Origin: Eledone cirrhosa
Lineage: Eukaryota
Assembly: GCA_964016885.1 (NCBI GenBank)
Contig: OZ024740.1
Span: forward strand, 194,680,001-194,744,000
Length of the DNA: 64,000 nucleotides
Direction of reading: 5' to 3'
Shown here: positions 1,886 to 64,000 of the stretch, in pieces
Layout: every line of letters begins with the position of its first letter
Position numbering within the stretch: position 1 is the first letter of the stretch
Notes under the pieces: generated by a model
Told to the model about the DNA's origin: nothing
The model's database searches: none
Seen by the model: the letters and a program-made list of their open reading frames with translations, nothing else
Position numbers and translations under genes: made by a program

Positions 1886-2203
1886 TATATCGGAGTTATC
1901 CCAGTTTCCTGAGATGCCTTCTCCTAGAATGCCCTGACAAAGGCTAGGGGTCCTTCACTCCCAGTGGTTTAACCGTGCGGTACATGTGTACATACATATA
2001 TTTGCACACTTTGGGATGGTCGTTGACTCTTATGAGTTCTTCCGTCCTTTGTCAGGTTTTGTTTTTTTGTCCAGCAGGATGTCCAAAATCATCCTCCTCA
2101 CCAAGTAAACTTGGCGGGGTTGCCGGTTTAATCGCCGACAATCCGATCATGCGACAGGTTGTACTGGGTTACATGTTACCAGTAGCAGTCAAGAGTGACC
2201 CGA
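1886..2203 (+). mobile_element. 3' half of structured non-coding repeat ('ACAT element'), copy 1
   Basis: Near-identical to 29425-29678 and homologous to 44645-44838. Ends in GAGTGACCCGA followed by a degenerate (ACAT)n. Confidence 0.75.
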
Positions 2204-2226
2204 GATATACATACAAACATACATAC

Positions 2227-2664
2227 ATCATGGCTGCAACTCGAATTTCGAGTGATGCTATCGCTTGATACTTAAGCATGAGCATTACGGGCGTGGCTTC
2301 CTAGTCGTGCTAGGGGCTTGCCTATGGCTAGAAATGTTATGCATAGCAGAAGATATCACATATCAAGCAATTCCTATGATTGAAGCTTATATTAAGCGAG
2401 GAAAAGCTTTGTATGGGGCCAATCCCACACTCTGAATATCGAATGCATGTACCCAACAAGTAGAACTTCTCTACATCATTGGATGCAAACGAAGTCGCAG
2501 GTTGTATATCAGATTGACATTCTCCTAAAGAGATGTCTTAATGATAACTTGCAGTCTCTCGCCCCACAAAAAAAAAATTATTGGATGCCCGATGACTCTC
2601 CTGAGTTCCTCCGCGCTTTGTTTTTCATTCCTCAGTGTCCAAAACCGCCCTCCTCACCAAGCAA
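2227..2664 (+). mobile_element. Diverged structured non-coding repeat ('ACAT element'), copy 2, 3'-truncated
   Basis: Shares ATGGCTGC-ACTCG..CGAGT, GCCAATCCCAC, CATCAT..GCAGG and GTCCAAAA..CCCTCCTCACCAAG blocks with the copies at 29207 and 44306. Flanked by ACAT repeats. Confidence 0.7.
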
Positions 2665-2754: not shown

Positions 2755-2755
<1 letters not shown>

Positions 2756-4206
2756 CACAATGTGTTTGCTGTGCCTGTCCTAACACCAACGTTTCGAATA
2801 CTCAATTGGACGATAGACGAAATCCGAGCAGTTGATGTTGGAACTCGAAAAATACTGAACAACACCGGAAACTTCCACATCAACAGTGACATAGACCGCC
2901 TTTACTTGAAATGTAAGCAGGGAGGCAGAGGCCTAACATCAGTCCAGACAACATTTGAATGTCGCATCATATCTCTCCGACAACATCTACGAACCTCGAA
3001 GCGTAGGAGCCCGTTTCTCGAGCAAGTCTATCTGGATGAAACAGATAAGATCGTGAGAGTTGGGAAGGAACTCCTTGAGAGATATTCCCTATGTGATAAT
3101 CAAAAACTCACACCCAGGGATGTCGCTCAGCGGTATCGCAGTGAATCCATGGATGAAAAACTGCATGCTTATTAGCAAAAAATCATGCATGGATATGTTG
3201 CCAGGGAGCTCCAGAGTGAGAGTAATATAGATAAGGAAAGCAGTCTATCTTGGACCAACAACAGCTATATTGGCTCCCACTTTGAAGGATACGCTTTTGC
3301 AATCCAGGAACAGGAGATTAGCACGAAATACCTGATTCACAAAAGAGATAGGGATGCAGGCAAAACACCTAGATGTGATAACAAGTGCAGACTCTGCAGA
3401 ACTAACATCGAGGATATCACCCATGTCATCAGCAGCTGTCCAAAGATGTCATCGCAGTACTATCTACCTATGAGGCATGATGTAGTGGCCAAAACACTAT
3501 ACAATGCAGTTCGTAAAAAAGATAGCCCCGATAATAAGCACATTAAAAGCTACAACAATGTGGAAGATATCCATGTACATAATATGAAAGAGTACTGGTG
3601 GAATGTTCCAATAAAAAACCCAATAAAATGCAGGCATAAAAGACCGGATATTATGATATGGGACAGGGAGAAGAAAATATGCACAGTAGTGGAAATTAGC
3701 TGCCCAGCAGATGCCAATATAATATCAAAGATTAGTGAAAAGGAGAATATTTATGCAGAACTGATGAGAAATCTGCAGATACTCCACCCTGATTACACCT
3801 TCAGATTTATGCCTTTGATTATTGGGGCACTGGGATATGTTAGTAACTGCCTCAATACAAATCTTGAGAAGCTAGGCTTCACAGGAACAGAAAGAACACA
3901 ACTAGTTAGGAAATTACAAGTACAATCCATTAATGGAACAGTAAAAATATGTAAAACATTCCAAAGATGTTGCATCTAATAACTGCATATACACATGTAC
4001 AGATACAAAGCATATACACATGCACACATACAACTCAAAACATCCACATCCACACATACAATAACATCCATATCTACACATGCATGCATACATACATGTC
4101 TACCTAGTTGATGTTGTGTAAATTCCAATGAGAGAGTCTTGTGTCTATGTTAGAAACCTACTCTCTCTATTGGTAAAACTTTGTGAAATTATAAAACCAG
4201 AAGAAC
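2755..4206 (+). mobile_element. 5'-truncated RLE-type non-LTR retrotransposon (R4/Dong-like), second family
   Basis: In-frame ORFs 2447-3175 (real coding from ~2755) and 3185-3979. Post-RT motif DRLYL..QGGRGL, AIQEQ, CRLC..EDITHVISSC, HKRPDIMIWD..VEISCP. About 225-nt 3' UTR, then (CATA)n. Confidence 0.9.
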
Positions 4207-8002: not shown

Positions 8003-8055
<53 letters not shown>

Positions 8056-8066
8056 TATAGATAGAT
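7998..8066. repeat. (GATA)n microsatellite separating two tandem L1/Tx1 copies
   Basis: Direct reading; similar arrays at 4513-4528 and 13984-14183 (degenerate). Confidence 0.95.
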
Positions 8067-11000
8067 AATTTCTATTTACTTGCCACAAGGGCACAATAGA
8101 AGGGGACAAATACAAGGGGTCGGGGTTACATAAAGCAACGAGTAAAAAACAAATAACAAATATAAAATTAACAATGCAGTCCTCAATAGTGAGGAGGCGT
8201 TTTGGTGGTTACACACACCCCTGAAAAAGTGTGCAACCCTTTTCCTTAGGAGCACAGAGAGGGGGTGCTCCTTTGAACTTCCACCTTTCCACCTACAGGA
8301 TGATAAAGAGAGAAGGCCCATTCACACGGACCATTCTCGCTACTTTCACCCACCTTTCATAACACTTGCTGGGGTAGAGCACCTCTCTCTCCATTCTGAT
8401 CCTTCTCTTAAAATGGTATTTAAAGAAAAGGACCAGTTGTTGGCCGGAGAGGAAGGTGTCCGATCTCAGCCCTTTCAAACGTGTCCACCATACCACCTCT
8501 TTCACCATGGCTATTACACAGAGGAAGACCGCCTCTCCTTCATTTTTTAAGAGGGGAGGCGGCTTGATCGTTACAATGGACTCGGCGGTCAACCGGATTG
8601 GTCCCACCCGTGACAGCAGTCGTTCGACATAGCCCCACAGATCGGCAACGCCCGAGCAGTGTACCAATGCGTGCGCAACGGTTTCCTCGTCGCGCATGCA
8701 TCTGGGACAGCTCTTTTTCGAGGGGTCCCTACTCAGGCGCCCGTGTCTGTAGAGCTTTTCTCGAACGGGCAGCGCCCCTCGGTAGCACTGCCAGGCCAGG
8801 GACCTCTGGAAGTTGTCCATAGGTCCCGGGCCAAATGTCCTCCCGAATAGGCTGGCCAGTTCGTCTTCTTCCATGCCTAGGGCTTGTCCGAGGGCGTCGT
8901 CGCACCTACTAACCACCAGCCCTCTATAGAATGACGAGGTGGAGTCTCCACCGATAGCCGGGTCCGCCTGCCAGAGAGCCGTGAGCTCCTGGGCACACTC
9001 GGTGTGCCAGGCGCCCAGTTTTCTCGGTCTTTGCTTGACCCAGGACTGCAGCTCGGTGAGCGCGACGAGTCTCGGAAAAGCTCGCCTCACAAACGGGGCC
9101 CACACCCGTTGACCGGTGATGAATACCTGGAGGTGCCGTAGCCTAAATGCGTGTTTACGCATCAGCAGCCACGGCATCCCCAGCCCTCCTTTCGAAGGGT
9201 GTTGACAGCAGATGGATCTCCTCACCAAAGGAGCCCGCTTCTTCCAAAGTAATTGGAATAGTGCGCGCTCCATTTTGGTGAGCGTTTCCCTTGGGCAAGG
9301 CACGACGGTCAGGCGGTAATAGATGACGGACGCTATATAAGCGTTCGCCACCTCCGCCCGACCTTTCAGGGATAGTTTGCACTCAGCCCACTTCTGCGTC
9401 AGCGCAAACACCCTGTTCGATACCTCACCCAGTTCTTCTCCACTTGGAGGTCAGGCCCGAACCCGACCCCGAGCAACTTCACCGGGCTCACCGTCCAACG
9501 TCCGACGACGCCGTTGGAGGCCATCGGTTTGCCCCTCCACTTGCCGAGTTGAAAAACCGACTGACTTGTCCCGGTTCAGCTTAGCCCCTGTAAACATTTC
9601 GTATTCCTCCAGTAAGGTGCCGATCACCCCGATTTTCGAGGCGGTTGACACCATTACTGTCACGTCATCGGCGTAGGCCGACACCGCTTTCCGCAATCCC
9701 GGTTCCAAAGGGATGCCCTGTAACAACTCCAACTTCCGCAGCAGTGGCTCTAGGGCCAATACATACAGAAGGGAGGAGAGAGGGCATCCCTGTCGGATGT
9801 GATTTCGAACGGCTCCGAGAGGTAGCCGTTCACCTTGACGCTAGAGCAGATGTGGCTGCTGTGCATGGCGTGATCCCTAAAAACGGGTCCGAAACCTGCC
9901 GCCACTAGCACCGCATCCAGGTAACGATGGTCGACCCTATCGAAGGCCTTAGATTGAACCAAAGCCGGGTTCGTTCCCCACCCTCTCTATGATGTATCGC
10001 ATGAGATGGAGGTTGTCGTGAATAGACCTGGAAGGGATGGCGCATGTCTGCGCATTTCCCACCAGGTTGCCCACGACAAGCGCCAACCTCTTTGCTAACA
10101 CCTTGGCCAAAATCTTTAACCCTGAATTTAGCAGAGTTATGGGCCTAAAATTACTTATTTCATCCTCCTTGTTCTCGTCCTTCCTCACTAGCGAGACTGC
10201 GCCCTTGGTCACAGAACAGGGAATTCTCCCGTTCTGTTGCCAGTTGCAGTAGACCGCCTCGAGGAGATCGAAGAACAAGTCCGGCATACTTAAATACATT
10301 TCGTATGGAAGACCATCGAGGCCCGGAGATTTGCGTCTGCCGCATTGGCTCAGCAGGTCCCCTATTTCAGCAGCTGAGATCCGCCTCTCGCAGGACTTCG
10401 CCTCCTCGTCTGAAAGACGCGGCAGACCGTCGAGGTATGGACCGAGGTCCACATCCCCATCCGGACCCTCGCCCCTTCCGAACAATCGGGCAAAGTGCCT
10501 TTGAAAGGCCTCGCATATCTGCTTAGGTTCAAGGATCACCCGTCCATCCTGGTCTCGCAAAGACCGGATAGTGGATCTAATCCCAGTTTTGGATTCTGTC
10601 ACGCGGGCCCAACTAACAGCTTTGGTCCCCTCATTTCCCAGAGCACGTATTTTGCTTCGGACAACGCAGCCTTCGTGTTTCGCGTCGAAGAACTGGCCCA
10701 ATGCCGTTCTCAACGCTAGCACTCTGGCTACGTCGCCGCTTCTAATTGCCTCTTCTACACTATCTACCAACTCTCTTTCCTTCCTATTTTTATCTGAGGC
10801 TAACTCCTTACTAACTCCTATTGAAGCTACTCTAATCTCTCTTTTGAGAGAGCCCACCACCTGCTGTTGACGATGGCGCCCGTCAACCGCTTCTTAACTA
10901 AAGTACTAATCCGGTCCCTGTAAACTTTACTTGCCGGTAAGGCTTCCAGTAACCGGGTCCCTGTTTATGCGTTCTATCATGGTTGACCATGCAGGTAACT

Positions 11001-13983
11001 AACTTGTGGTCTGAATAGCCAACCTTGAGCATTTCTGGACAAATTAAAAAGTCCCTATCCTTATTTCTGACTAAGAACCTATCTAGGTACGATCTAGATT
11101 GACCGCTATGGTTTGTCCAAGTCCAGGTTGGCACAGTCGGAAAATCTAGTCGATATCTATCGGCCAGGTCGAATCGGCCGATTAACATCTTGAGGTTGTT
11201 ACAACCCCCTCTATTGGGACATACCCCTACATAGTCCCAACGTGCATCTAGGATACCATTCCAGTCCCCCACTAAAAGCAAGGAGCGGGACGTCCCTAGA
11301 AAAGTCTCCAGACGATGGAAGAAGTCCGCCCGCGTTGACCCAAAAGGGCCGTAGATGGCGACCAGCCTAGACGCTCCACCTTCACCACTTCCAAGATCCA
11401 GAACCACTAGTCGACCCTCCGAGTCCAAGTGTACCGTCTGTGTAGCGAGACCCAGATGTTTTTTCAGCAGAATGACAACGTCACCCCCACCTCCGGGCTG
11501 ACAGAGAGATGCGTGCATCTCAAAGTCATCAAAGGTGGGGGCTGGCTGTCGCATGTTGCTGATCCGGACCTTGCAAATAACCATCACATTTATACATCGT
11601 GACCTGAGGTCATTTAGAATCATTGCTTGCTTCCAAGGTGAGCCCAAGCCACGCGCATTTAGACAACCTACTCTCAACACAGCCATGTTGGTGGTAAAGA
11701 GAAAAGGCACTTACCTCTCTCTGTCCCGGGGACCGGGCCGCACAATTTCCATGGGGATGAGGGGTGGGTTGTTGGGTGTGGTGGTCGTTTGTGGAAGTGT
11801 AGGGGAATCAGTGTGTGGTGGGGTTGGGGTGTTTGGAGTTGTGTGGGTGTCTGGGGGGAATTTATTAGGAGGACACGGTTAATGGGTCTGACGCAGGGGG
11901 GCCCACGTTCTCTTTAAAAGTGTCTGTTAACGTTTTGTAAGTGTCCATTGGGGCTTTTATCATTTTTAGATGGGGAAGCCCCGTTGCTTGTGCGAAATTC
12001 GAACCTTTGGTTTTTATTAAGTTGCTGTTATAAATAACTGTTTCTACTTTAGGCACAAGGCCAGCAAATACCCAGTGCATTACTGGTACTTTATTTTATC
12101 GACACCGTAAGGATGAAAGGCAAAGTCAACCTCGGCGGGATTTGAACTCTGATCGTAAAGGGACGTAACTATGCTGGAAAGCACGGTGTCTGACCCTCTA
12201 CCGATACTGCCAATCCACCGCCCTTGTTATAAATAACGTTTAACAGTTTTTTTGTTTATTGTGTTTATGTAAGTGTATGCATATTTTTCTTTTTATGTGA
12301 TCTTTTTTGTTTGCTGTTGTTGTGTGTTTTTTTGTGTTGATGTCTGAGTTATGCATTGGGGAGGCGTTGTTTGTATTTGTGTTCCTGTGGTGTGTTTTCT
12401 TTTTTTTCTCTTAACTTTATGAAAGTGTCCGACACCCACCCCCCTCGTCTGACGACGAAAGGGGGTCGTCTTCCGTATTCGAGGGGAGGGGTACATTTTC
12501 GGCTCGTGTTTGTGGTGTGGGTGTTATTGTATTTGTTTTCTGTGGGGGGTGGGGGGATTGTTTTCAGTTGTGTTTTAACTTGTGGTGTTAGTTGTTTTTG
12601 TGGTGGTGGAGGTTGTGTTGGTAGTGTTGTAGTTGTTGGTGTGGGCAAAATCGGTGTTTTTTTGTTTGCTTGGGAACAGGCAGCCCTCAGGTGACCTCTG
12701 CCACCATAGAGGTAACAAGCGGGTCGTCTACCCTCCACTGTGATGTGTAAGTAGGAAAGCCCATCCAGCAATATGCGGTCGGGGATCCTAGCAATTCGTT
12801 CTGGCTGCATTTGCACCAGAACTTGCAGGCTAGTTCCACCGAACACGTTGCTGGAAGACTAACCTACCGAAATTACTGCATCCTCTTTCAAGTCGAAGAG
12901 GCCACACAGTACCGCCCAGAAATCAATATCTGGATCGATACTGTGTATGGTCAATCTTTGCGTTCTTCTTCCCAAATAAGTGGGGAAGAAGGTCAATAAG
13001 GGGGACACAATTGGGGTCAGGGAATGTTTCTCGGCCGTCAATTAATTTCATTCGGATGGATAGACTACCGTAGAGTCTATCCTTCCGAATGAATACAATG
13101 TTTTTCAGATGATCTTTTAAAGCCAGTTCAATCTCTGTCTGTGTGAGTTTTACTGGCTTACGGGTTTTGTTGGATAGTGTCCTATAAATAATAGTTTTTA
13201 AGCTATTTTCCATTTTTAGCTCTGGGGAGAATTTAAAGAAAATAGACCATTCTCCTCCAAAGTTATATACTTCCGTGAATTTTCCATTTGCCGGGCCATG
13301 TTCGAAATGTCAATTGGTTCATACACAATGTTTTTTGGGTAGTTTGAGCGAACGTTATTTTGTTCGCCCCCTCTTTGTTTACATTTGTCGAAATGTGGTT
13401 GTTTTCTTGTTTTTTGTTGTTACAATTTCCATTTTTTGTTGTGTTTGTTATTTATGTTGGTGTATGCGTTCACATTTTTTTCTCCCTTGGGGTTAGACTC
13501 CATTTTTTTCAAAATGTTCACATATTTTCAGTATCCGAGAGACTTGTAGTCACAGCTACTACTCCTCTTTCACCTTTGGTGGTGGGCGTGGCACTGTGAA
13601 AATTCGAAACGGCATCCATTAATGTTGGCAATTTCTCCGAGTCAATTTTTTTCACATTTTTTTTATTAGGGTTAGGCTCCATTTTTTCAATGTTTCTAAT
13701 AATGATTATTCTTTCAGTAGGGAGGCTTGTTGCCTCGGCTACCCGCTCTCCTTCAGTTTGTTTAGTGGGCGTGTCATCGTTACCTGTGGTAATGGCTTCC
13801 ATTAGCACTAGCATAGAGACAATCACAAGATTTTGAGGATGAAAAATGTAACCCTAATGTCCGAAGACCCAAGCAAGGGGTTAATTAACACAATAACGCA
13901 AGAATACAGACAAACACTTACTGTTAACACGTAATATATCCAATAATCGAGGAGCCGATGTGAAGAACTTCTATACCATCCGG
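8067..13983 (-). mobile_element. Apparently full-length (~5.9 kb) L1/Tx1-clade LINE with ORF1 and ORF2, frameshifted
   Basis: ORF2 pieces: 10898-11710 (APE: CLNARGL, GDWN, SYLDRF, SDHK), 9949-10860 (SPGLDG, FRPITLLN), KAFDRVDH, AYADDVT, 8293-9411 (CPRC..ETVAHALVHC). ORF1 pieces 12349-13826 with knuckle CYLYGGRGHLRAAC. (GATA)n at both ends. Confidence 0.92.
12039..12224 (-). mobile_element. tRNA-derived SINE inserted in the LINE
   Basis: B-box-like GAGTTCAAATCC and core GCCGAGGTTGACTTTGCCTTTCATCC; 13-bp TSD tgttataaataac at 12026-12038 and 12225-12237. Confidence 0.92.
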
Positions 13984-29206: not shown

Positions 29207-29678
29207 ATGATGGCTGCCCCCTCGTTATCGAGTATGGCCATTGCACGATATACCATTATTAATAATTATTAATTAATTCTATCGTGCAATGCCTGTGCGT
29301 GAAGATATTTTTTTAAGTGAGGAAAGACTGTACACTGAGCCAATCCCACTCTCTGAGCGACAGTAGCTATAACCCGAAAAGAATAAAAGATCAACATCAT
29401 CGGTAACCACTGAGCCGCAGGTTTTATATCGGAGTTATCCCAGTTTCCTGAGTTGCCTTCTCATAGAAGAATGCCCTGACAAAGGCTAAAGGTCCTTCAC
29501 TCCCAGTGGTTTAACCGCATGGTACATGTGTATATACATATTTACACAATTTCGGATGGCCGTTGACTCTTATGAGTTCTTCGCACTTTGTCAGGTTTTG
29601 TTTTTTGTCCTGCAGGGTGTCCAAAATCACCCTCCTCACCAAGTAAACTTGGTGGGGTTGCCGGTTTAGTTGCCGAGA
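29207..29678 (+). mobile_element. Structured non-coding repeat ('ACAT element'), copy 3, 3'-truncated
   Basis: Begins ATGATGGCTGC; hairpins ctcg/cgag and cattgcacgata/tatcgtgcaatg; 3' half matches 1886-2135. Confidence 0.75.
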
Positions 29679-30254: not shown

Positions 30255-30447
30255 AGGGCGGTGGATTGGCAGTATAGGGAGAGGGTCGGACGCCATGCTT
30301 TGACGCATAGAGTTACGGCCCTTGCCATTCTGAGTTCAAATCCCGCCGAGGTTAACTTTGCCTTTCATCCTTACGGGGTCGATAAAATAAAGTACCAGTA
30401 ATACACTGGGTAATTTCTGGCCTTGTGCCAAACGTAGAAACAGTTAG
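30255..30447 (+). mobile_element. Full-length tRNA-derived SINE
   Basis: AGGGCGGTGGATTGGCAG head, GAGTTCAAATCC box, family core; TSD atgtatattttt. Confidence 0.9.
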
Positions 30448-43121: not shown

Positions 43122-43354
<233 letters not shown>

Positions 43355-43461
43355 CCACTCTACTACCCTAAGTATTGAGTACTTTGGTGCGTTATGGTCC
43401 ACCTGGTTCCTTAACACATTTCCTTCGTTATATATGTATGTATATATATATATATTTATAT

Positions 43462-43604: not shown

Positions 43605-44008
43605 ATGGAAGAGTACGGCAAAAATAGAGAGACGGCTGAACGCTTTCCACCAGCGATCCTTCGTGTGTCCTGGCGCGACCGAGTGCGAAACGAGGAGATC
43701 CTGCGGAGAGCCGAATCGTGGACGCTACAGAGAGTGGTCGCGGAGTGTCGGTGCCGTCTGGCTGGCCATGTTCTGCGTCTGCCAAATGAACGGCATTCGA
43801 AAACAGCGATGGACTGGACTCCGCCTGGCGGTAAACGGAGGCGGTGTTGCCCAAGTATCTCCTGGCGACGAAAGTTCCGGAAGGACCTGATGGCAGTCAA
43901 CATCACCTGGCACGGTCTCGAAAAAGTTGCCGTTGATCGTGACCGTTGGCGAGTACTTACTGCTCGATGCGCCGAACGGCGCGGAAGAATCTAAGACTAA
44001 GACTAAGA
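43605..44008 (+). mobile_element. RTE-clade LINE 3' fragment with (CTAAGA)3 tail
   Basis: [39 protein letters not shown]; tail followed by (CATA)n. Confidence 0.88.
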
Positions 44009-44081
44009 CATACATACATACATACATACATACATACATACATACATACATACATACATACATACATACATACATACATAC

Positions 44082-44232
44082 ATGGTGGCTGCCAACTCGT
44101 TTTCGAGTACGGCCACTACTTTATATCCATGTAGGAGAACCCCTACCGATGCGCTGAACGAGTGTGACTTTTTAGTCCAGCCATCAACTTGAAAACTCTG
44201 GTACAAACACTACACTTGTGACAATTATTGAC
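44082..44232 (+). mobile_element. Short variant of the 'ACAT element' 5' module, copy 4
   Basis: ATGGTGGCTGCCAACTCGTTTTCGAGTACGGCCAC between (ACAT)n arrays. Confidence 0.55.
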
Positions 44233-44305
44233 ACATACATACATACATACATACAGACAGACAGACAGACAGACAGACAGACGACAGACAGACAGACAGA
44301 TAGAC

Positions 44306-44838
44306 ATGATGGCTGCAAACTCTGCTAAGAGTATTGCAATCGCTTGTCAGATTATAGAGTTTGGTGCAATTTTAGGTTACGGCCGGTCACACAAACATGT
44401 AACATATCCTGAACAAGCAATGCCTGTGCTTTGAAGGTTTTTTTAAGGCCTTGCACTCGAACAATCGCACTCTCTGAGCTTCGAAAACACTAACCGAAAA
44501 GGAGAACTGGTCAACATCATCGGATGCTTCCGAAGCCGCAGGGTTTTTTTTTTCACGGCTTCTCTCTCCTAGAAAGGTGTATTGAAAACAACTGGGGAGG
44601 GCGGGGGGCTTTCAATCCAAGGTGAAATTTTAAAAAGAGTACTATTTGGATGGCCGTTGACTCTGTTGAGTGTCCTCCGCCCTTTGCTGGGTCTTGTATT
44701 TCATACCGCAGGGAGTCCAAATATCACCCTCCTTACCAAGCAAGCTTGGTGGCGTTGCCGATTTAATCGCTGACGACCCGACCATGAGACAGGTTGTACT
44801 GGGTTACATGTTACCAGTAGCACTTGAGAGCAACCTGA
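44306..44838 (+). mobile_element. Complete structured non-coding repeat ('ACAT element'), copy 5
   Basis: acat|GATGGCTGC ... GCAACCTG|acatacatacataca; all blocks shared with copies 1-3. Confidence 0.75.
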
Positions 44839-45016
44839 CATACATACATACAATTTTTCTCCTATGACCCTATTTAACTATAAACAAAATATGTTCTACC
44901 AACAGACCAACATGTAGATTGTGAGTAAATATATTTTCATAATTCAATTACCTCTGTATTTCCTTGCAATTGTTTTATATTTTTATAATTGGTCGAGATC
45001 TAACAAGTAACAAATC

Positions 45017-45492: not shown

Positions 45493-47784
45493 TCATTTTG
45501 TCCTTAATTGTAAGTTCCACTCATATTTTCTATTTAATTTTGGTTGTAATTCTTTTATGTTTATTGCCTCTGTAATTTGTCTAAACATTGCGTCTTTTCT
45601 GTGTGTAGATTCTATTTTTATTTCTATGTTCTCTAATTTACCCTTGTGTTCTATTTTAGCATGTTGGTAGAGTACAGATGATTCTTTACTATCTTGAAGG
45701 TCTCGCCAGTATTCATTTATCCGTTCCCCTACACTACGAGCTGTCTCACCTATGTACACTATATTTTTGTCTCTACATTGTCCTTCAGTACATCTTATGC
45801 TATACACTACATTTCTAGTTTTAACGTTAATATGGGGGCTTATTTTACAGGTTATACATTTCTTATCTATACATGAGGGTCTTTGAAAAGGGTATGTCTT
45901 GCTAATAAGTGTTTTTACGGAGGTACCTGGTCTTTCTACTATCTTAATATTGAGTTTATGTTTATTTAGGGCCCTTCTAAATTTGTAAGCTAATTCACCG
46001 CTAGGGGTTGTATCGATGAACATTACACTCTGGTATTTATTGCTATCATACCATGAGTTTATTCTATTAGCCTTGTTCCTAGTTCTTTCTATTCTATTCC
46101 AAAATTTGCTCCAATACAAGGGGCAGGTCCCATTTATGTCATTATTTACCATTTTTTCCCATTTAGTTCTGGCTCCTCTATACACTCTGATTTTATCTCT
46201 CTGATTGTAGCCAGAGAACTGCATACGGTGGATGAAGTGTTGTATGTGTCTCTCTAGTTCTTCGGGGTTGCACATGCGGGACACGTTTCTCATCACCCGT
46301 ACCAAATCCGCAATCAGTATGTTGATTTTGGTATGGTCCGAGACGGCCGAGTTTCGGTGGATCAGATGTTTGGAAGTCATGGGTTTGGCATAATGGGAAT
46401 GCAGGATTTGTTTTTTGTTATTAATGGTATCTAACCAGAGCTCTGTGTCTAGTACAGGTAATCGATGGTTGGGGTGTTTACGTGGGTAGTCTATAGTAAC
46501 TCTAATGCATTGGTGGATGGAGTTAGCTATTTGCTGGATGCTTTCCATTGTGTTCTTCTCTAGTTCCTGACTGTTCTCTAGTGGGGGTGTCTTAACTACG
46601 AAGTTTATATCATCAACGTAGCGGGAGTACATTATCAGGGTTAAGGGGTCTTCTAATTGTTCTTTAAGTTTAAGTTTAAGTCTACTGTCCCACCATACCA
46701 TGAATAAGTTAGCTATGTCGCCTGCAATGCTAACACCAATGGCTGCTCCTTCCTCTTGGGCATATGTTTTTCCATTAAATTTGAACATATGTTCCTTAAG
46801 GGTTAGTTTTATGCTGGCCCCTACCGCATGTGCAATCATTTTCTTCAGTTCATCGTGGTTTTCGGGTGTCCGTATGGCTCTGGTCCACCCGTTCCATCTA
46901 TCTGTGTCGGTTTTCTTGGCCATTGAGGTAATGGTAGGTGGTCTGCCTCTTGCTGGTCTTGTAGGGCACAGGTTGCTAAGGTCATATGTGTCTAGGTAAT
47001 TATTACTATATTTAAGTTTAAGCAGGAGTCCCAGCTCACTGGTATCAATCCCACGGAACTCAACATTGCTCTCACTGATCATTTCTACGCATTTCTCCAC
47101 AGCAAAATCCACGTCAATAGATGGGTACAGGGACACAACATCCATACTACCTATTATGCAGTTTGTTAGGTTCCTAGATCGGTTACTCACGCCGATTCTG
47201 CTGAGGAGGTCCTCCGTGCTGTCACATACATCTGGGGACATTTCAATGATGGAGCGTATGATCAGGGAGAGGAAGTAGGACAGTCTGTAGTTACTAGCAA
47301 TGTTAGCTCCACAGACTGGCCGTGTTGGTGGTCCCGCGACAGGGTCACTGCCCGTTTTATGGTCTTTTCGAAGCCCATACAACGCCGGCACGTCATTGTT
47401 CCAGGCCTGGAAGTTGTTGGCAGTCCTTTTGTTGAGCTGCATTATATTCTTCCACATCACCATATGGGCATTGAGGGCTTTTTCTCTATCCTCATGCTCC
47501 TGTGGTGTTACTTCTCTTGTGTTAGTGATGTGGGGTTGCATTGCCTGGATGTAGTTTGGCAGGCTGTCAACCGACATTCTGTTAGACTTGTCTGTTGGAA
47601 AGCATGCTATCTCTCCATTACGCGAGCGCTGCATGAGCTTACGCAAGCCATTTGCAGATTTTTCTCCCAGTTGCTGGGCCTCCATTCTATTATGCTTCTT
47701 GCTATACTGTTCTATAATATTTCTAAGTTCGGATCTAGCTATACTAAATTGTGCTTCTGTTTGTTCATCGACCTGCGACGGCAA
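45493..47784 (-). CDS. Penelope-like reverse transcriptase + GIY-YIG endonuclease (partial, uninterrupted 763 aa; possibly Naiad-type)
   Basis: LYGLRKDHK, RPVCGA, GSMDVVSLYPSID, GAAIGVSIAGDIANLFMVWWD, SRYVDD, CxxxxCxxC linker, VVYSIRC..VYIGETARS, EAINI..PKLN. Clade call is from remembered motifs only. Confidence 0.92.
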   Translation of the reverse strand: MPSQVDEQTEAQFSIARSELRNIIEQYSKKHNRMEAQQLGEKSANGLRKLMQRSRNGEIACFPTDKSNRMSVDSLPNYIQAMQPHITNTREVTPQEHEDREKALNAHMVMWKNIMQLNKRTANNFQAWNNDVPALYGLRKDHKTGSDPVAGPPTRPVCGANIASNYRLSYFLSLIIRSIIEMSPDVCDSTEDLLSRIGVSNRSRNLTNCIIGSMDVVSLYPSIDVDFAVEKCVEMISESNVEFRGIDTSELGLLLKLKYSNNYLDTYDLSNLCPTRPARGRPPTITSMAKKTDTDRWNGWTRAIRTPENHDELKKMIAHAVGASIKLTLKEHMFKFNGKTYAQEEGAAIGVSIAGDIANLFMVWWDSRLKLKLKEQLEDPLTLIMYSRYVDDINFVVKTPPLENSQELEKNTMESIQQIANSIHQCIRVTIDYPRKHPNHRLPVLDTELWLDTINNKKQILHSHYAKPMTSKHLIHRNSAVSDHTKINILIADLVRVMRNVSRMCNPEELERHIQHFIHRMQFSGYNQRDKIRVYRGARTKWEKMVNNDINGTCPLYWSKFWNRIERTRNKANRINSWYDSNKYQSVMFIDTTPSGELAYKFRRALNKHKLNIKIVERPGTSVKTLISKTYPFQRPSCIDKKCITCKISPHINVKTRNVVYSIRCTEGQCRDKNIVYIGETARSVGERINEYWRDLQDSKESSVLYQHAKIEHKGKLENIEIKIESTHRKDAMFRQITEAINIKELQPKLNRKYEWNLQLRTK

Positions 47785-48399
47785 TTGCGTGCGTTTGTTA
47801 AATGGTAGAGTCGTGGCGTGGACTCGTCGCAGGTCGAACGATTTATCGGAGGGATTATAAAACGTAGAGTTCCAGGCTGCTGCTTTATGTGTACTAGTGC
47901 TATTGTTATTGTTAGTTGTGTTGTTTCTATTTCTATTTCCATCAACAGCCTCATGGTTGTTTCAATGTCTCTCATAATTACTCCTGTCTCTTTCCACTGG
48001 CTCATTGTTGTTATCTACCCTATTTTGTGTGTCTGTGTGTTCGCTTGGTTATTTTCTTTGTCCTTAGTCTCCCTTCTCCTTTTAATCCTATTGCTTTCCC
48101 TTATTTCTGTGATTTCTGTGCTACTGTCATTACTTGTTCTCTGTGTCTGTGTGTTTGTTAAGATTGTGGTGGTGGTGGGAGGCATTGAATGTGTGTGTGT
48201 TGTTGTTATTGTTGTTTGTGTCTGTGTGTCTGTTGTTGTTGGGATGTGTGTTGTATATGTGTGTGCGTATATTGTTGCTTTTGTTTTTGTTTTTGTTTTT
48301 GAGGCTCCAGCGTAGTTTTGTAAATGATTTTTCTATTTCTGACAGACAACTAATCATGGGTTTGGCATAATGGGAATGGAGGATTTGTTTTTTGTTATT

Positions 48400-51300
48400 A
48401 ACAACAGCACACATCAACAACAACAACACACACACATTCAATGCCTCCCACCACCACCACAATCTTAACAAACACACAGACACAGAGAACAAGTAATGAC
48501 AGTAGCACAGAAATCACAGAAATAAGGGAAAGCAATAGGATTAAAAGGAGAAGGGAGACTAAGGACAAGGAAAATAACCAAGACGAACACACAGACACAC
48601 AAAATAGGGTAGATAACAACAATGAGCCAGTGGAAAGAGACATGAGTAATTATGAGAGACATTGAAACAACCATGAGGCTGTTGGTGGAAATAGAAATAG
48701 AAACAACACAACTAACAATAACAATAGCACTAGTACACATAAAGCAGCAGCCTGGAACTCTACGTTTTATAATCCCTCCGATAAATCGTTCGACCTGCGA
48801 CGAGTCCACGCCACGACTCTACCATTTAACAAACGCACGCAATTGCCGTCGCAGGTCGATGAACAAACAGAAGCACAATTTAGTATAGCTAGATCCGAAC
48901 TTAGAAATATTATAGAACAGTATAGCAAGAAGCATAATAGAATGGAGGCCCAGCAACTGGGAGAAGAATCTGCAAATGGCTTGCGTAAGCTCATGCAGCG
49001 CTCACGTAATGGAGATATAGCATGCTTTCCAACAGACATGTCTGGCAGAATGTCGGTTGACAGCCTGCCAAACTACATCCAGGCAATGCAACCCCACATC
49101 ACTAACACAAGAGAGGTAACACCACAGGAGCATGAGGATAGAGAAAAAGCCCTCAATGCCCATATGGTGATGTGGACGAATATAATGCAGCCCAACAAAA
49201 GGACTGCCAACAGCTTCCAGGCCTGGAACAATGACGTGCCGGCGTTGTATGGGCTTCGAAAAGACCATAAAACGGGCAGTGACCCTGTCGCGGGACCACC
49301 AACACGGCCAGTCTGTGGAGCTAACATTGCTAGTAACTACAGACTGTCCTACTTCCTCTCCCTGATCATACGCCCCATCATTCAAATGTCCCCAGATGTA
49401 TGTGACAGCACGGAGGACCTCCTCAGCAGAATCGGCGTGAGTAACCGATCTAGGGACCTAACAAACTGCATAATAGGTAGTATGGATGTTGTGTCCCTGT
49501 ACCCATCTATTGACGTGGATTTTGCTGTGGAGAAATGCGTAGAAATGATCAGTGAGAGCAATGTTGAGTTCCGTGGGATTGATACCAGTGAGCTGGGACT
49601 CCTACTTAAACTTACCTATAGTAATAATTACCTAGACACATATGACCTTAGCAACCTGTGCCCTACAAGACCAGCAAGAGGCAGACCACCTACCATTACC
49701 TCAATGGCCAAGAAAACCGACACAGATAGATGGAACGGGTGGACCAGAGCCATACGGACACCCGAAAACCACGATGAACTGAAGAAAATGATTGCACATG
49801 CGGTAGGGGCCAGCATAAAACTAACCCTTAAGGAACATATGTTCAAATTTAATGGAAAAACATATGCCTAAGAGGAAGGAGCAGCCATTGGTGTTAGCAT
49901 TGCAGGCGACATAGCTAACTTATTCATGGTATGGTGGGACAGTAGACTTAAACTTAAACTTAAAGAACAATTAGAAGACCTCTTAACCCTGATAATGTAC
50001 TCCCGCTACGTTGATGATATAAACATCGTAGTTAAGACACCCCCACTAGAGAACAGTCAGGAACTAGAGAAGAACACAATGGAAAGCATCCAGCAAATAG
50101 CTAACTCCATCCACCAATGCATTAGAGTTACTATAGACTACCCAAGTAAACACCCCAACCATCGATTACCTGTACTAGACACAGAGCTCTGGTTAGATAC
50201 CATTAATAACAAAAAACAAATCCTGCATTCCCATTATGCCAAACCCATGACTTCCAAACATCTGATCCACCGAAACTCGGCCGTCTCGGACCATACCAAA
50301 ATCAACATACTGATTGCGGATTTGGTACGGGTGATGAGAAACGTGTCTCGCATGTGCAACCCCAAAGAACTAGAGAGACACATACAACACTTCATCCACC
50401 GTATGCAGTTCTCTGGCTACAATCAGAGAGATAAAATCAGAGTGTATAGAGGAGCCAGAACTAAATGGGAAAAAATGGTAAATAATGACATAAATGGGAC
50501 CTGCCCCTTGTATAGGAGCAAATTTTGGAATAGAATAGAAAGAACTAGGAACAAGGCTAATAGAATAAACTCATGGTATGATAGCAATAAATACCAGAGT
50601 GTAATGTTCATCGATACAACCCCTAGCGGTGAATTAGCTTACAAATTTAGAAGGGCCCTAAATAAACATAAACTCAATATTAAGATAGTAGAAAGACCAG
50701 GTACCTCCGTAAAAACACTTATTAGCAAGACATACCCTTTTCAAAGACCCTCGTGTATAGATAAGAAATGTATAACCTGTAAAATAAGCCCCCATATTAA
50801 CGTTAAAACTAGAAATGTAGTGTATAGCATAAGATGTACTGAAGGACAATGTAGAGACAAAAATATAGTGTACATAGGTGAGACAGCTCGTAGTGTAGGG
50901 GAACGGATAAATGAATACTGGCGAGACCTTCAAGATAGTAAAGAATCATCTGTACTCTACCAACATGCTAAAATAGAACACAAGGGTAAATTAGAGAACA
51001 TAGAAATAAAAATAGAATCTACACACAGAAAAGACGCAATGTTTAGACAAATTACAGAGGCAATAAACATAAAAGAATTACAACCAAAATTAAATAGAAA
51101 ATATGAGTGGAACTTACAATTAAGGACAAAATGAAAACACACACACACATAGAACAAACAACCAACCAGTAACATGTAAATAAACAAATAAATAAATGAA
51201 CATAAACACACACAGACACCCGGATGTGTCGCATGCGCAGACTGAGCACACAACACACACGCAGAAACAAAATGGCGTAGGACAGAACAAAGGAGAGGCA

Positions 51301-61102: not shown

Positions 61103-63752
61103 TATTGTTATACTTGGGGAGGGTCATATTTGCGTAATATTGCCAGAATTAATAACAGAACACACTCACTGTTTGGTTGGTTTTCGCTTCTCGCTGTCTT
61201 TTATATATATATATCTGCGATCTAACTTACTCGGTCCTCAATGTTGCCATTGACTGACCGGCGGTCAAAAATAATACAGATACAATATAGACACAAACAC
61301 ATATATATATATATAGTTTACATAATTTACATAAATCTTTCGTTGCACATCTGCAACATCGTCAGTGGTGTTATATTCATTGTTCCTCCTGTTGTGTTGT
61401 ATGTCTACGCCATTTTTTATTCAGTCTGTCTATATATTTATTTATTTATTTGCTTGTTTGTTTATCTTATTTTATTTTGTCTTCTTTGCGCATGCGTTTG
61501 TGTGTGTGTATAGTGTTATGTGTGATGTGTGACTAGTGTGTATAGTGTTGTGTCTGCTGGGTGACTAGTGTGTGTTTATGTGCTTGTTGTTATTGTGCTT
61601 GTGTATGTATTTATTTATCTTATTTTATTTTATTTTATTTACTTATTTATACTTCTCTTAGGTCAGTGTTGTTTGTTTGGGTGTTGTTGTTGTTCCACTC
61701 ATTCTTTCTGTTTAGCTTTGGTCTTCTAATTTCTATTTCACTGGCCTCTCTGATTTGCCTATCTGCTGGGTCATTCCTATGTTTAGATATTATTCTAATT
61801 TCTATGTTGTCTATGTTACCGTCATGTTGTTGTCTAGCATATTCGTATAGTACTGACCCGTTTTTTCGTCCTTTTAGTTCCCCCCAGTATTGGTCTATCT
61901 TTCACCTATGCTACGAGCTGTCTCACCTATGTATGTTGTTGTCATGTTTCTGCAAGTACCCTCTGTACATCTTATGCTATAGACTACGTTTCTAGTTTTA
62001 CAGTTTATCCGGGGGTTCACCTTACATATGATACACTTCCTATTGGTACAGTGGGTTTTCTTAAAAGGGTAGGTTTTGCTGATCAGGGATTTTATGGTGG
62101 TTCCTGGCTTTTCTACCACCTTTATTTTTAAGTGGGTCTTTCTCAAGGCCTTTCTACACTGGTTAGCTAATTTCCCTCCAGGGGTGGCGTCCACAAACAT
62201 GACACTCTGATATCTCTGGTTGTCGTACCATGATGTGGCCTTCCCTATCTTATGTCTAGCCCTATCTAAGCTATTCCATGATTTGCTCCTGTATAGTGGG
62301 CAAATTCCTTTCATGTCCAGTTCTATGAGGGTCTTATACTTTTCCATGGCTCCTTCGTATACTCTGACTCTGTCTCTTTGGTTGTAGCCAGAGAACTGCA
62401 TGCGGTTGATGAAGGGTTGGATGTGTCCTTCCATTTCTGTTGGGTCGCACATGCTGGACACATTCTTCATCACTCGTACCAAATCTGCGATCAGAATATT
62501 AAACTTAGCACTACTGGACATTGCTGAGTTTTTGAGTATCAGGTATTTGGAGGCCATGGGTTTAGCATAGTGTGAGTGGAGAATTTGGGCTCTCTCGTCT
62601 ATAGTGTTAATCTAGAGTTCTGTGTCTAATACAGGTAGTCTATTGTTAGGGTGTTTGGAAGGGAAGTCTATAGTTACAGTTATACTCTGGTGTATGGAAT
62701 TAGCTATCTCCTGGATGCTTTCCATCGTGCTACGTTCTAAATCAAACTTGTTAGTGCTCTCTAGTGGGGGTGTTCTTATAACTATATTGATATCGTCTAC
62801 ATAACGAGAGTACATGATGAGGTCTATGGAGCTTTCATTAAGGAGATCTTTAAGTCTCCTTTCCCACCATACCATGAAAAGGTTGGCAACATCACCAGCT
62901 ATGCTGACGCCGATGGCTGCTCCCTCATTTTGGGTGTAGATTTTCTCATTGAACTTAAATATGTGGCCCTTTAGGGTAGTTTTGATACTAGCCCCTATTG
63001 CATGTGCGACCATTTTTCTTACCTGATCAGTGTTTTGGGGGGTCCGTATGGCTTTGGTCCACCCAATCCCCCTTCCTATGGGAGTCTTTTTAGCCATTGA
63101 GGTTATGGTGGGGGGTCTACCTCTTATAGGTCTACTAGGGCAGAAACATCTAAGGTCATGGCTGTCTAGGTAGTCAGTGTCGTAGGTAAGTCTAAGTAGG
63201 AGGCCCAGTTCGTCTGTGTCGACGTCGCAGAACTCCACCTCACTCTCAATGATCATCTCCACACATCTTTTCACAGCAAAATCAATGTTAATGGATGGGT
63301 ACAGTGACACCACATCCATGCTGCCTATTATGCAGTTGGATAGGCTCCTGTTTTTGTTGCACTCACTGATTCTGCTGAGGAGGTCCTCTGTACTTTCACA
63401 TACATCTGGGGACATCTTGATTATGGGGCGTATAACCATTGAGAGGAAGTAGGAGATCCTGTAGTTGCTAGCTATATTAGCTCCGCATACGGGTCTTGTT
63501 GGTGGTCCTGTTGTCGGGTCGTCGACTGTCTTGTGGTCTTTGCGGAGCCCATACAAGGGTGGTATGCCATTGTTAGACGCCTGGAAGTTGTTGGCAGTGC
63601 GTCTGCTTGGCTTTAGGATGTCAGTCCACATCATCATGTGAGCGTTGAGGATTTTTTCTCTCCCATCGTGTGTTAGTTGTGCAACTTCGCTCGTGTTGGT
63701 GATGTGGGGTTGCATTGCCTCGATGTAGTTCGGCATGCTATCTATTGACATC
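61103..63752 (-). mobile_element. Penelope-like element, related but distinct family, 5'-truncated
   Basis: ORFs 62612-63778 (RT: GSMDVVSLYPS, SRYVDD) and 61895-62557 (NVVYSIRC..YIGETARS) with premature stops; 3' end into (TA)n. Confidence 0.93.
61329..61369 (-). ncRNA. Minimal type I hammerhead in pLTR
   Basis: Minus strand ca-CTGACGA-t-gttgca(gatg)tgcaac-GAAA-gat-TTA-tg; stem I is weak. Confidence 0.68.
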
Positions 63753-64000
63753 CAAGCTGAAAGGTTACTGAAAGACACTGTTTTCTGTTATATAAAAACT
63801 ACAATAACAACAGAACAAATCCGCTTCTTAAAACACTGTGTTTCCTCCAAAACATACACAACAAACATATCAAAACAAGTAAATAATTTATTATTGAACA
63901 AAACACAAGCCGAACGGCTAAAACACACAATAACAGTTAATATGAAAAGAACAACATACACAAAAGTCAACGCACTCTACAGACAAAAACGCATCAACGG

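Follow-up and report, generated by a model that had tools for sequence, protein, structure and literature searches.

By comparison with its genomic relatives, the element at positions 44306-44838 of the analysed Eledone cirrhosa DNA (a stretch of 64,000 nucleotides, here called the window) is a full-length bipartite, that is internally deleted, non-autonomous RTE LINE on the minus strand, which we assign to a family termed A. We identify it as such because both of its ends match one autonomous LINE, the ORF is gone and the 5'UTR motifs are RTE-like. Taken together, it is very likely that the element consists of the 5'UTR and the last 48 bases of an RTE LINE, that it is probably copied in trans by the RTE protein and that this protein probably recognises an RNA fold, which pairing of the 5'UTR with the 3'UTR is predicted to close. 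The class was already described, and this element is an addition to it. As such it is ordinary but abundant (about 1% of the sampled bases), and the testable new point is the helix. A first-pass annotation made from the letters alone had proposed a non-coding mobile element whose RNA fold is kept by selection, and our analysis supports this. The covariation signal noticed there, though strand and partner LINE were misread, leads to a candidate RNA feature that can be tested across the RTE clade. The parts of the element and its relatives in the window are given in Table 1.

Table 1. Coordinates of the family A element, its predicted parts and the related copies in the window (a dot marks an unassigned strand).
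Feature	Positions	Strand	Remarks
Bipartite non-autonomous RTE element, family A	44306..44838	-	matches to RTE-A LINE ends
5' head module, ~190 nt, several hairpins	44648..44838	-	true 5' end of RTE-A
Conserved RTE 5'UTR domain	44423..44605	-	left boundary exact, right boundary approximate
Predicted long-range helix, 5'UTR strand	44409..44422	-	
Remaining 5'UTR up to LINE start codon	44351..44408	-	deletion junction at 44351-44353
Predicted long-range helix, 3'UTR strand	44338..44350	-	
3'-terminal stem-loop of RTE tail	44315..44337	-	helices 13-14 of covariation set
Fixed RNA 3' terminus, then (GTAT)/(GTCT) repeats	44306..44314	-	
ACAT/ACAG microsatellite at 3' junction, tail and target	44233..44305	.	
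5'-truncated family D copy	44082..44232	-	holds 3' tail and RTE C2H2-finger remnant
(ACAT)19 microsatellite at 3' junction of family D copy	44008..44083	.	
5'-truncated family B copy	29207..29678	-	head, RTE-B 5'UTR (89-90%) and RTE-B 3' 42 nt (90-100%)
5'-truncated family C copy	2227..2664	-	
Family B copy with head, without RNA 3' part	1886..2203	-	rarer truncation kind

Copies were found in which the fixed end of the element adjoins a LINE ORF with C2H2 fingers, read in reverse complement. Against the RTE-A LINEs (L270, L271, L272, L295), the window copy matches the 5' end at 82-85% over 490 nt and, with its 3' 48 nt, the 3' end at 94-98%; the family A consensus matches L270 at 95%. Positions 1-487 of family A correspond to the LINE 5' end directly before the ORF (89-95%) in 9 of the 39 extended loci, where the match starts within the first 7 bases and stops at 482-487 (others gave partial matches), and positions 485-532 correspond to the 3' end of the same LINEs. 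Compared with RTE-A, the deletion in family A removes the ORF almost exactly from start codon to stop codon, and the junction joins both codon regions. The RTE-A ORFs (frames of L272) comprise endonuclease (Exo_endo_phos), reverse transcriptase (RVT_1) and C2H2 domains. For RTE-B, 3 of the 20 extended loci were full-length. One copy (L225:538-4122, minus strand) has an uninterrupted frame of 1195 codons from stop to stop, which matches Exo_endo_phos and RVT_1 and weakly C2H2, and a microsatellite-filled 3'UTR. Family B shares with RTE-B the 5'UTR (91-93% over ~267 nt) and the last 42 nt (90-100%). The partner LINEs have a single ORF with APE endonuclease and reverse transcriptase, a short 3'UTR, a microsatellite tail and the RTE 5'UTR domain; their RTE membership was assigned from domains and UTR motifs rather than from a reverse transcriptase tree. 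By eye, motifs of the 5'UTR domain match the alignments of Sepioth-SINE1/AviRTE and RTE-1_MD in the supplement of PMC5786205. Autonomous partners of families C, D and E were not found among the extended LINE loci. The absence of any ORF noted in the first pass does not extend to families C and D, the consensus sequences of which carry C-terminal C2H2-finger codons of the RTE ORF on the minus strand (by eye).

Three LINE families with divergent ORFs, F (L310, L314) and G (L328, L330, L341) among them, begin with the ~190-nt head, which occurs in the short families B, C and D as well, while RTE-B and family E have a different 5' end of ~45 nt instead. Since the head tops several LINE families and family B is a composite that joins it to the UTRs of another LINE, 5' modules appear to have been swapped between RTE lineages. 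Two loci (L086 and L003) look like intermediates, as they combine the head, a microsatellite and the complete 5' end of RTE-B. We also observed headless bipartite RTE-B derivatives of ~360 nt (L063:1125-1480, L071:660-1010, L088, L109) and, in L335, a tandem array of the element with three core domains (oriented positions 1268, 1745, 2219) at ~475-nt spacing. In three sequencing runs, possibly of RNA, from two other organisms, contigs cover nothing but the head region (44640-44850), which suggests a greater age and a wider spread for the head than for the body of family A; they are uninformative on strand or expression.

All five copies listed in the first pass are present, AT(G)RTGGCTGC is the common end of four of them, and the conserved short linkers and microsatellite flanks exist as described. 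They are, however, not five diverged copies of one element: they fall into four families, each with many near-identical copies in the genome (A, 532 nt; B, 539; C, 547; D, 612 and the youngest). A fifth family, E, was met in the flanks of other copies. Genome searches with four window copies were scored for the best 40 of 3839, 2899, 3897 and 141 candidates, respectively. In a sample of 80 evenly spaced 10-kb stretches (799,800 bases), which favours large chromosomes, 22 matches covered 0.96% of the bases. Scaled to the 3.0-Gb genome, this corresponds to roughly 80,000 matches, about a third of them full-length, with fragments and bare LINE tails counted in.

The first-pass annotation had read the RNA on the plus strand. 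We place it on the minus strand with a fixed 3' end because of a bias in end retention and of inversions at truncation points, and the match to RTE LINEs has the same orientation. Among the 22 sampled matches, 11 kept the RNA 3' end only, 2 the 5' end only, 7 both and 2 neither. That is, the 3' end was retained in 18 copies and the opposite end in 9, and the ‘fixed ends’ initially described in the plural reduce to one. The 69 incidental matches were distributed in the same order as 43, 3, 14 and 9. Two family D copies carry inversions, with 272-612 followed by inverted 210-267 in L119 and 143-612 by inverted 1-67 in L072; an inversion at the truncation point is the twin-priming pattern known from L1. 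A fixed 3' end, 5' truncation and inversions are signs of target-primed reverse transcription. By flank, 91 junctions comprised 55 ACAT, 22 AT and 14 others, and the genome is rich in AT and ACAT microsatellites. Such microsatellites mask target-site duplications, and a search in 35 full-length short copies returned a single non-simple repeat, which was microsatellite-like. The one clear case is a direct repeat of ~27 nt that flanks the LINE L272 (by eye).

These results bear on the origin first suggested for the element, namely a plus-strand structured RNA that is either a stand-alone parasite or the detached 5' module of ACAT-flanked, ACAT-targeting RLE LINEs. The element does sit in the same microsatellites as RLE LINEs, and two of the listed stems have G.U pairs on the plus strand. 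Yet no similarity to RLE, Tx1-like or Penelope-like neighbours was found. An RLE (R4/Dong-type) module was rejected on finding only chance matches to the two 5'-truncated RLE copies in the window, and the L049 stretch, an RLE 5'UTR, was not matched by the family profiles. What refutes an origin from RLE LINEs is that the element matches an RTE LINE at both ends, on the other strand. Polarity and inversions indicate a minus-strand template, and we give an RLE origin next to no credence. The related statement that no 3' tail is shared holds for the neighbouring LINEs (best E 0.065), but elsewhere the tail is common to RTE LINEs.

Other identities were considered as well. A SINE2 or Ceph-SINE was rejected, as there is no tRNA-derived head with Pol III boxes and the head is the LINE's own 5' end; consistent with the first impression that a tRNA head is missing, ARAGORN found no tRNA gene in the 64-kb window. 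Non-autonomous Helitron-type ends have 5' TC and 3' CTRR and no LINE-derived tail, and a Helitron was rejected because the ends are LINE UTRs and twin-priming inversions occur. Scanned against Rfam at E up to 10, the window stretch and L008 gave only microsatellite-driven (miRNA) or sub-threshold matches. Group I and group II introns, RNase P and known IRES were rejected since no Rfam covariance model matched; by-eye comparison with the known structures led us to drop group I/II introns, RNase P, H/ACA, the SRP Alu domain, twister-sister and pistol.

The covarying stems reported in the first pass are real, as judged from our alignments, and lie on the minus strand. For 71 named pairs in 14 helices of 13 copies, 93.8% of the cells pair on the RNA strand (33-44% in slid controls), 51 cells show two-sided changes compared with 18.5 in shuffles (none of 500 shuffles reached the observed value) and 15 of the 71 pairs show a two-sided change, figures that are descriptive and not a probability because the structure was drawn from the same families and the 13 rows represent four lineages. 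Among the helices is a 5-bp hairpin in the RTE 5'UTR domain with three two-sided changes (helix 9 of 14). Folding z-scores were modest outside the tail region and separated the strands poorly. Not every stem listed at first holds on the RNA strand: ctcg/cgag and tgcacgata/tatcgtgca do, whereas gtggctg/cggccac has C opposite A there and gives way to a stem changing from GCC/GGC to GCA/UGC, and tcggt/actga is missing from families C, D and E (by eye). The covariation arose as autonomous RTE lineages diverged, in their UTRs.

A ribozyme was among the roles first suggested for the fold, and an undescribed self-cleaving ribozyme in the ~190-nt head might set the sharp 5' end, as HDV-like or twister ribozymes do in other RTE-type elements. 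Full-length copies do begin at one position, the head contains covarying hairpins and a three-way junction, and ribozymes of RTEs have been reported (PMC5786205; PMC8501958 for Perere-3). But no Rfam ribozyme was matched at E up to 10, the sequences searched contained no hammerhead core, and an HDV descriptor applied to 9 + 6 sequences found none on the sense strand. That descriptor gave one chance-like match on the antisense strand of L271, was positive in 1 of 40 shuffles and was also blank on an RLE 5' region tried as positive control. A ribozyme in the head is improbable; we leave it at that level because the descriptor lacked a positive control.

The variable loop of 30-100 nt that the first-pass annotation placed within a stem is the site of the ORF deletion, and the stem closing it (7-14 bp) pairs the last part of the 5'UTR with bases that precede the 3' hairpin. 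In undeleted LINEs the two strands lie 3.2-3.9 kb apart; in two internally deleted copies the distance is 2.8 kb. When the 5' and 3' segments of seven lineages were matched in all 5040 ways, the cognate assignment came out best, and on the ORF-sense strand the 70 positions held 8 G.U versus 2 A.C. We took 24 LINE copies, 22 of which could be scored (2 had no anchor). In 16 of these, the cognate site ranked within the top 1% of ~4000 windows; the other 6 (4 of 5 G, 1 F, 1 A), mostly old G copies, had a weak cognate duplex. The expected 5' segments of three LINE families (F, G, H) were stated before their 5' ends were seen. For F (9 bp, of which 3 are G.U) and G (up to 10 bp, in the copy that pairs best) the position was as predicted, with the segments at the homologous place but not with exactly the predicted letters; for H, the conserved 5'UTR domain was not recovered in 3 loci. 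One of two full-length minimum-energy folds, that of L271 (4005 nt), contains the helix, whereas in the fold of L225 the 5' segment pairs elsewhere.

Could the complementarity of the ends be a neutral by-product, for example of inverted copying at insertion, such that the RNA does not form the helix? Twin-priming inversions do occur in these elements and old copies often pair weakly. However, the register is fixed in seven lineages, the ORFs of which are only about 30-60% identical to RTE-B, two-sided changes occur at several positions, G.U outnumbers A.C by 8:2, and the helix takes the same position in vertebrate RTEs. We therefore regard a neutral origin as very improbable, although not quite as remote as an RLE origin.

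The comparison with RTEs of other animals comes from the supplement of PMC5786205. All six published autonomous RTEs of which both ends are displayed in the portion covered (RTE-4_PPo, RTE-1_PSi, RTE-3_AMi, RTE-11_AMi, BovB and RTE1_LA) have complementary segments of 6-12 bases at the junction, as judged by eye, with compensatory changes between close relatives. Examples are ACCCCATGAA/TTCATGGGGT in BovB, CATGACATC/GATGTCATG in RTE-3_AMi and CTTGACATC/GATGTCAAG in RTE-1_PSi. The main text of PMC5786205, as far as it was accessible, contains no mention of pairing terms, and no account of RTE 5'-3' UTR pairing was found in the literature searched, the coverage of which has gaps, so that an earlier note of the helix, or an entry of the families in a repeat library, may exist. 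We tentatively raise the possibility, which we would not yet call probable, that RNAs of RTE-clade LINEs close into a loop by a conserved, covarying helix that spans the ORF and links the 5'UTR end with the stretch preceding the 3' stem-loop, and that this helix builds an undescribed two-part loading site for the reverse transcriptase, from this genome to BovB and to crocodilian, turtle and elephant RTEs. If true, the loop would act as a full-length check on the template and would explain why RTE, almost alone among LINE clades, yields bipartite derivatives and SINEs with bipartite tails. In the same supplement, the platypus SINEs MonoRep87A/B, whose 3' part is annotated as unknown, end in (CAT)n and have a long hairpin that immediately follows the RTE 5'UTR domain; they are likely bipartite RTE derivatives, too.

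For the element in the window, we propose transcription from its 5' head, for which Pol II is the probable polymerase because there is no tRNA-like head. As the covariation suggests, the short element and the full LINE alike would then pair the end of the 5'UTR with the stretch preceding the 3' stem-loop, a helix that would place the conserved 5'UTR domain beside the 3' hairpin. Judging from the junctions and established LINE biology, the endonuclease would nick AT/ACAT microsatellites and the (GUAU)n tail would anneal. Aided by this tail, target-primed reverse transcription would start at the fixed 3' end, in line with the model in PMC6007223, and give rise to 5'-truncated and twin-primed copies. 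Loading of reverse transcriptase, one of the functions first suggested for the fold, is our leading proposal for a part of it: we lean towards a composite structure that loads the enzyme, such that good templates need both UTRs. On this proposal, families A-E kept both ends because only RNAs with both UTRs were good templates. Both ends are not a universal need, since plant Au-like and TS SINEs share only the 3' part with RTE (PMC6007223, PMC3747384).

The same element could also use its helix differently. As a closed loop, the RNA might serve translation, stability or a switch from translation to copying, and the derivatives would have kept the 5'UTR for its promoter. In families A and B, 10-60 nt separate the helix from the start codon downstream, and pairing of RNA ends regulates translation in RNA viruses, a precedent in favour of such a role. 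It would also accommodate those RTE-mobilised plant SINEs that lack the 5' part (PMC6007223). On the other hand, the non-coding families A-E all retain the helix, and published tRNA-headed SINEs with their own promoter (WALLSI2, SINE2_Gav, CoeSINE4) keep just the paired part of the 5'UTR. We consider a purely regulatory helix rather unlikely, and prefer the loading of reverse transcriptase.

The closest known systems are the bipartite RTE LINEs RTESINE1/2, MAR4_MD/WALLSI3, RTE-N1/N2_Lch, RTE1-N1_LA and Bov-A (PMC5786205, PMC3747384). They too combine the 5' and 3' ends of one RTE LINE with the ORF deleted, likewise without a small-RNA head, with a microsatellite tail and with exchange of parts between families. 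Compared with them, the present element has another host and sequence and is longer (430-612 nt), and some of its families keep C-terminal ORF codons; pairing between the two parts is not described in the accessible portions of the two papers. The conserved RTE 5'UTR domain is shared by Ceph-SINEs (Sepioth-SINE1, SepiaSINE, OegopSINE, IdioSINE2) and by Bov-tA, AfroSINE and ManaSINE (PMC5786205, PMC4844689, each in part), but Ceph-SINEs and bipartite-tail SINEs have tRNA or 5S heads and CORE bodies, whereas this element has the LINE's own 5' end. By description, RTE-B is like the octopus LINE RTE-2_OV (PMC9115989, excerpts), which has a single ORF with endonuclease, reverse transcriptase and C2H2 finger, a long 5'UTR and a microsatellite-filled 3'UTR; its ORF has 1109 amino acids versus 1195 codons in L225, and identity is not claimed. 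In stringent LINEs (L2/UnaL2, plant RTE and the Au-SINE hairpin; PMC6007223), too, a hairpin showing compensatory changes stands at the 3' end, with short repeats behind it. Their structures are local to the 3' end, while here the predicted helix adds the 5'UTR to the 3' hairpin. The helix also offers a means to recognise RTE-derived SINE tails of unknown origin. According to PMC13708176, RTE-1_MD is employed for inserting genes, with a template RNA that carries both UTRs, so that the pairing would bear on template design.

The window contains further mobile sequences. At 8293-11710 (minus strand) lies a LINE with APE, RT and zf-RVT (L1/Tx1-like) that ends near (AGAT)n at 8003-8067. Two 5'-truncated LINEs of different families on the plus strand (840-1820 and 2755-4206) have C-terminal zinc-knuckle and nuclease-like regions, and we take them to be of RLE type. 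They end at (ACAT)n, in the same microsatellites as the RTE elements and in opposite orientation. Frames with Penelope-like RT and GIY-YIG (weak Pfam matches) occur at 45493-47961 (minus), 48666-51134 (plus) and 61895-63787 (minus), the first two back to back. A near-perfect inverted repeat of ~110 nt with a fixed tail, at 43240-43430 and in the flanks of L017, L022 and L315, is placed in AT microsatellites and looks like a small foldback or MITE-like family. Finally, a tRNA-like SINE at 30260-30440 (plus strand), presumably similar to the octopus OK SINE, belongs to a very common family that is also inserted in the AT-rich loop of the family B copies L003, L046 and L135.
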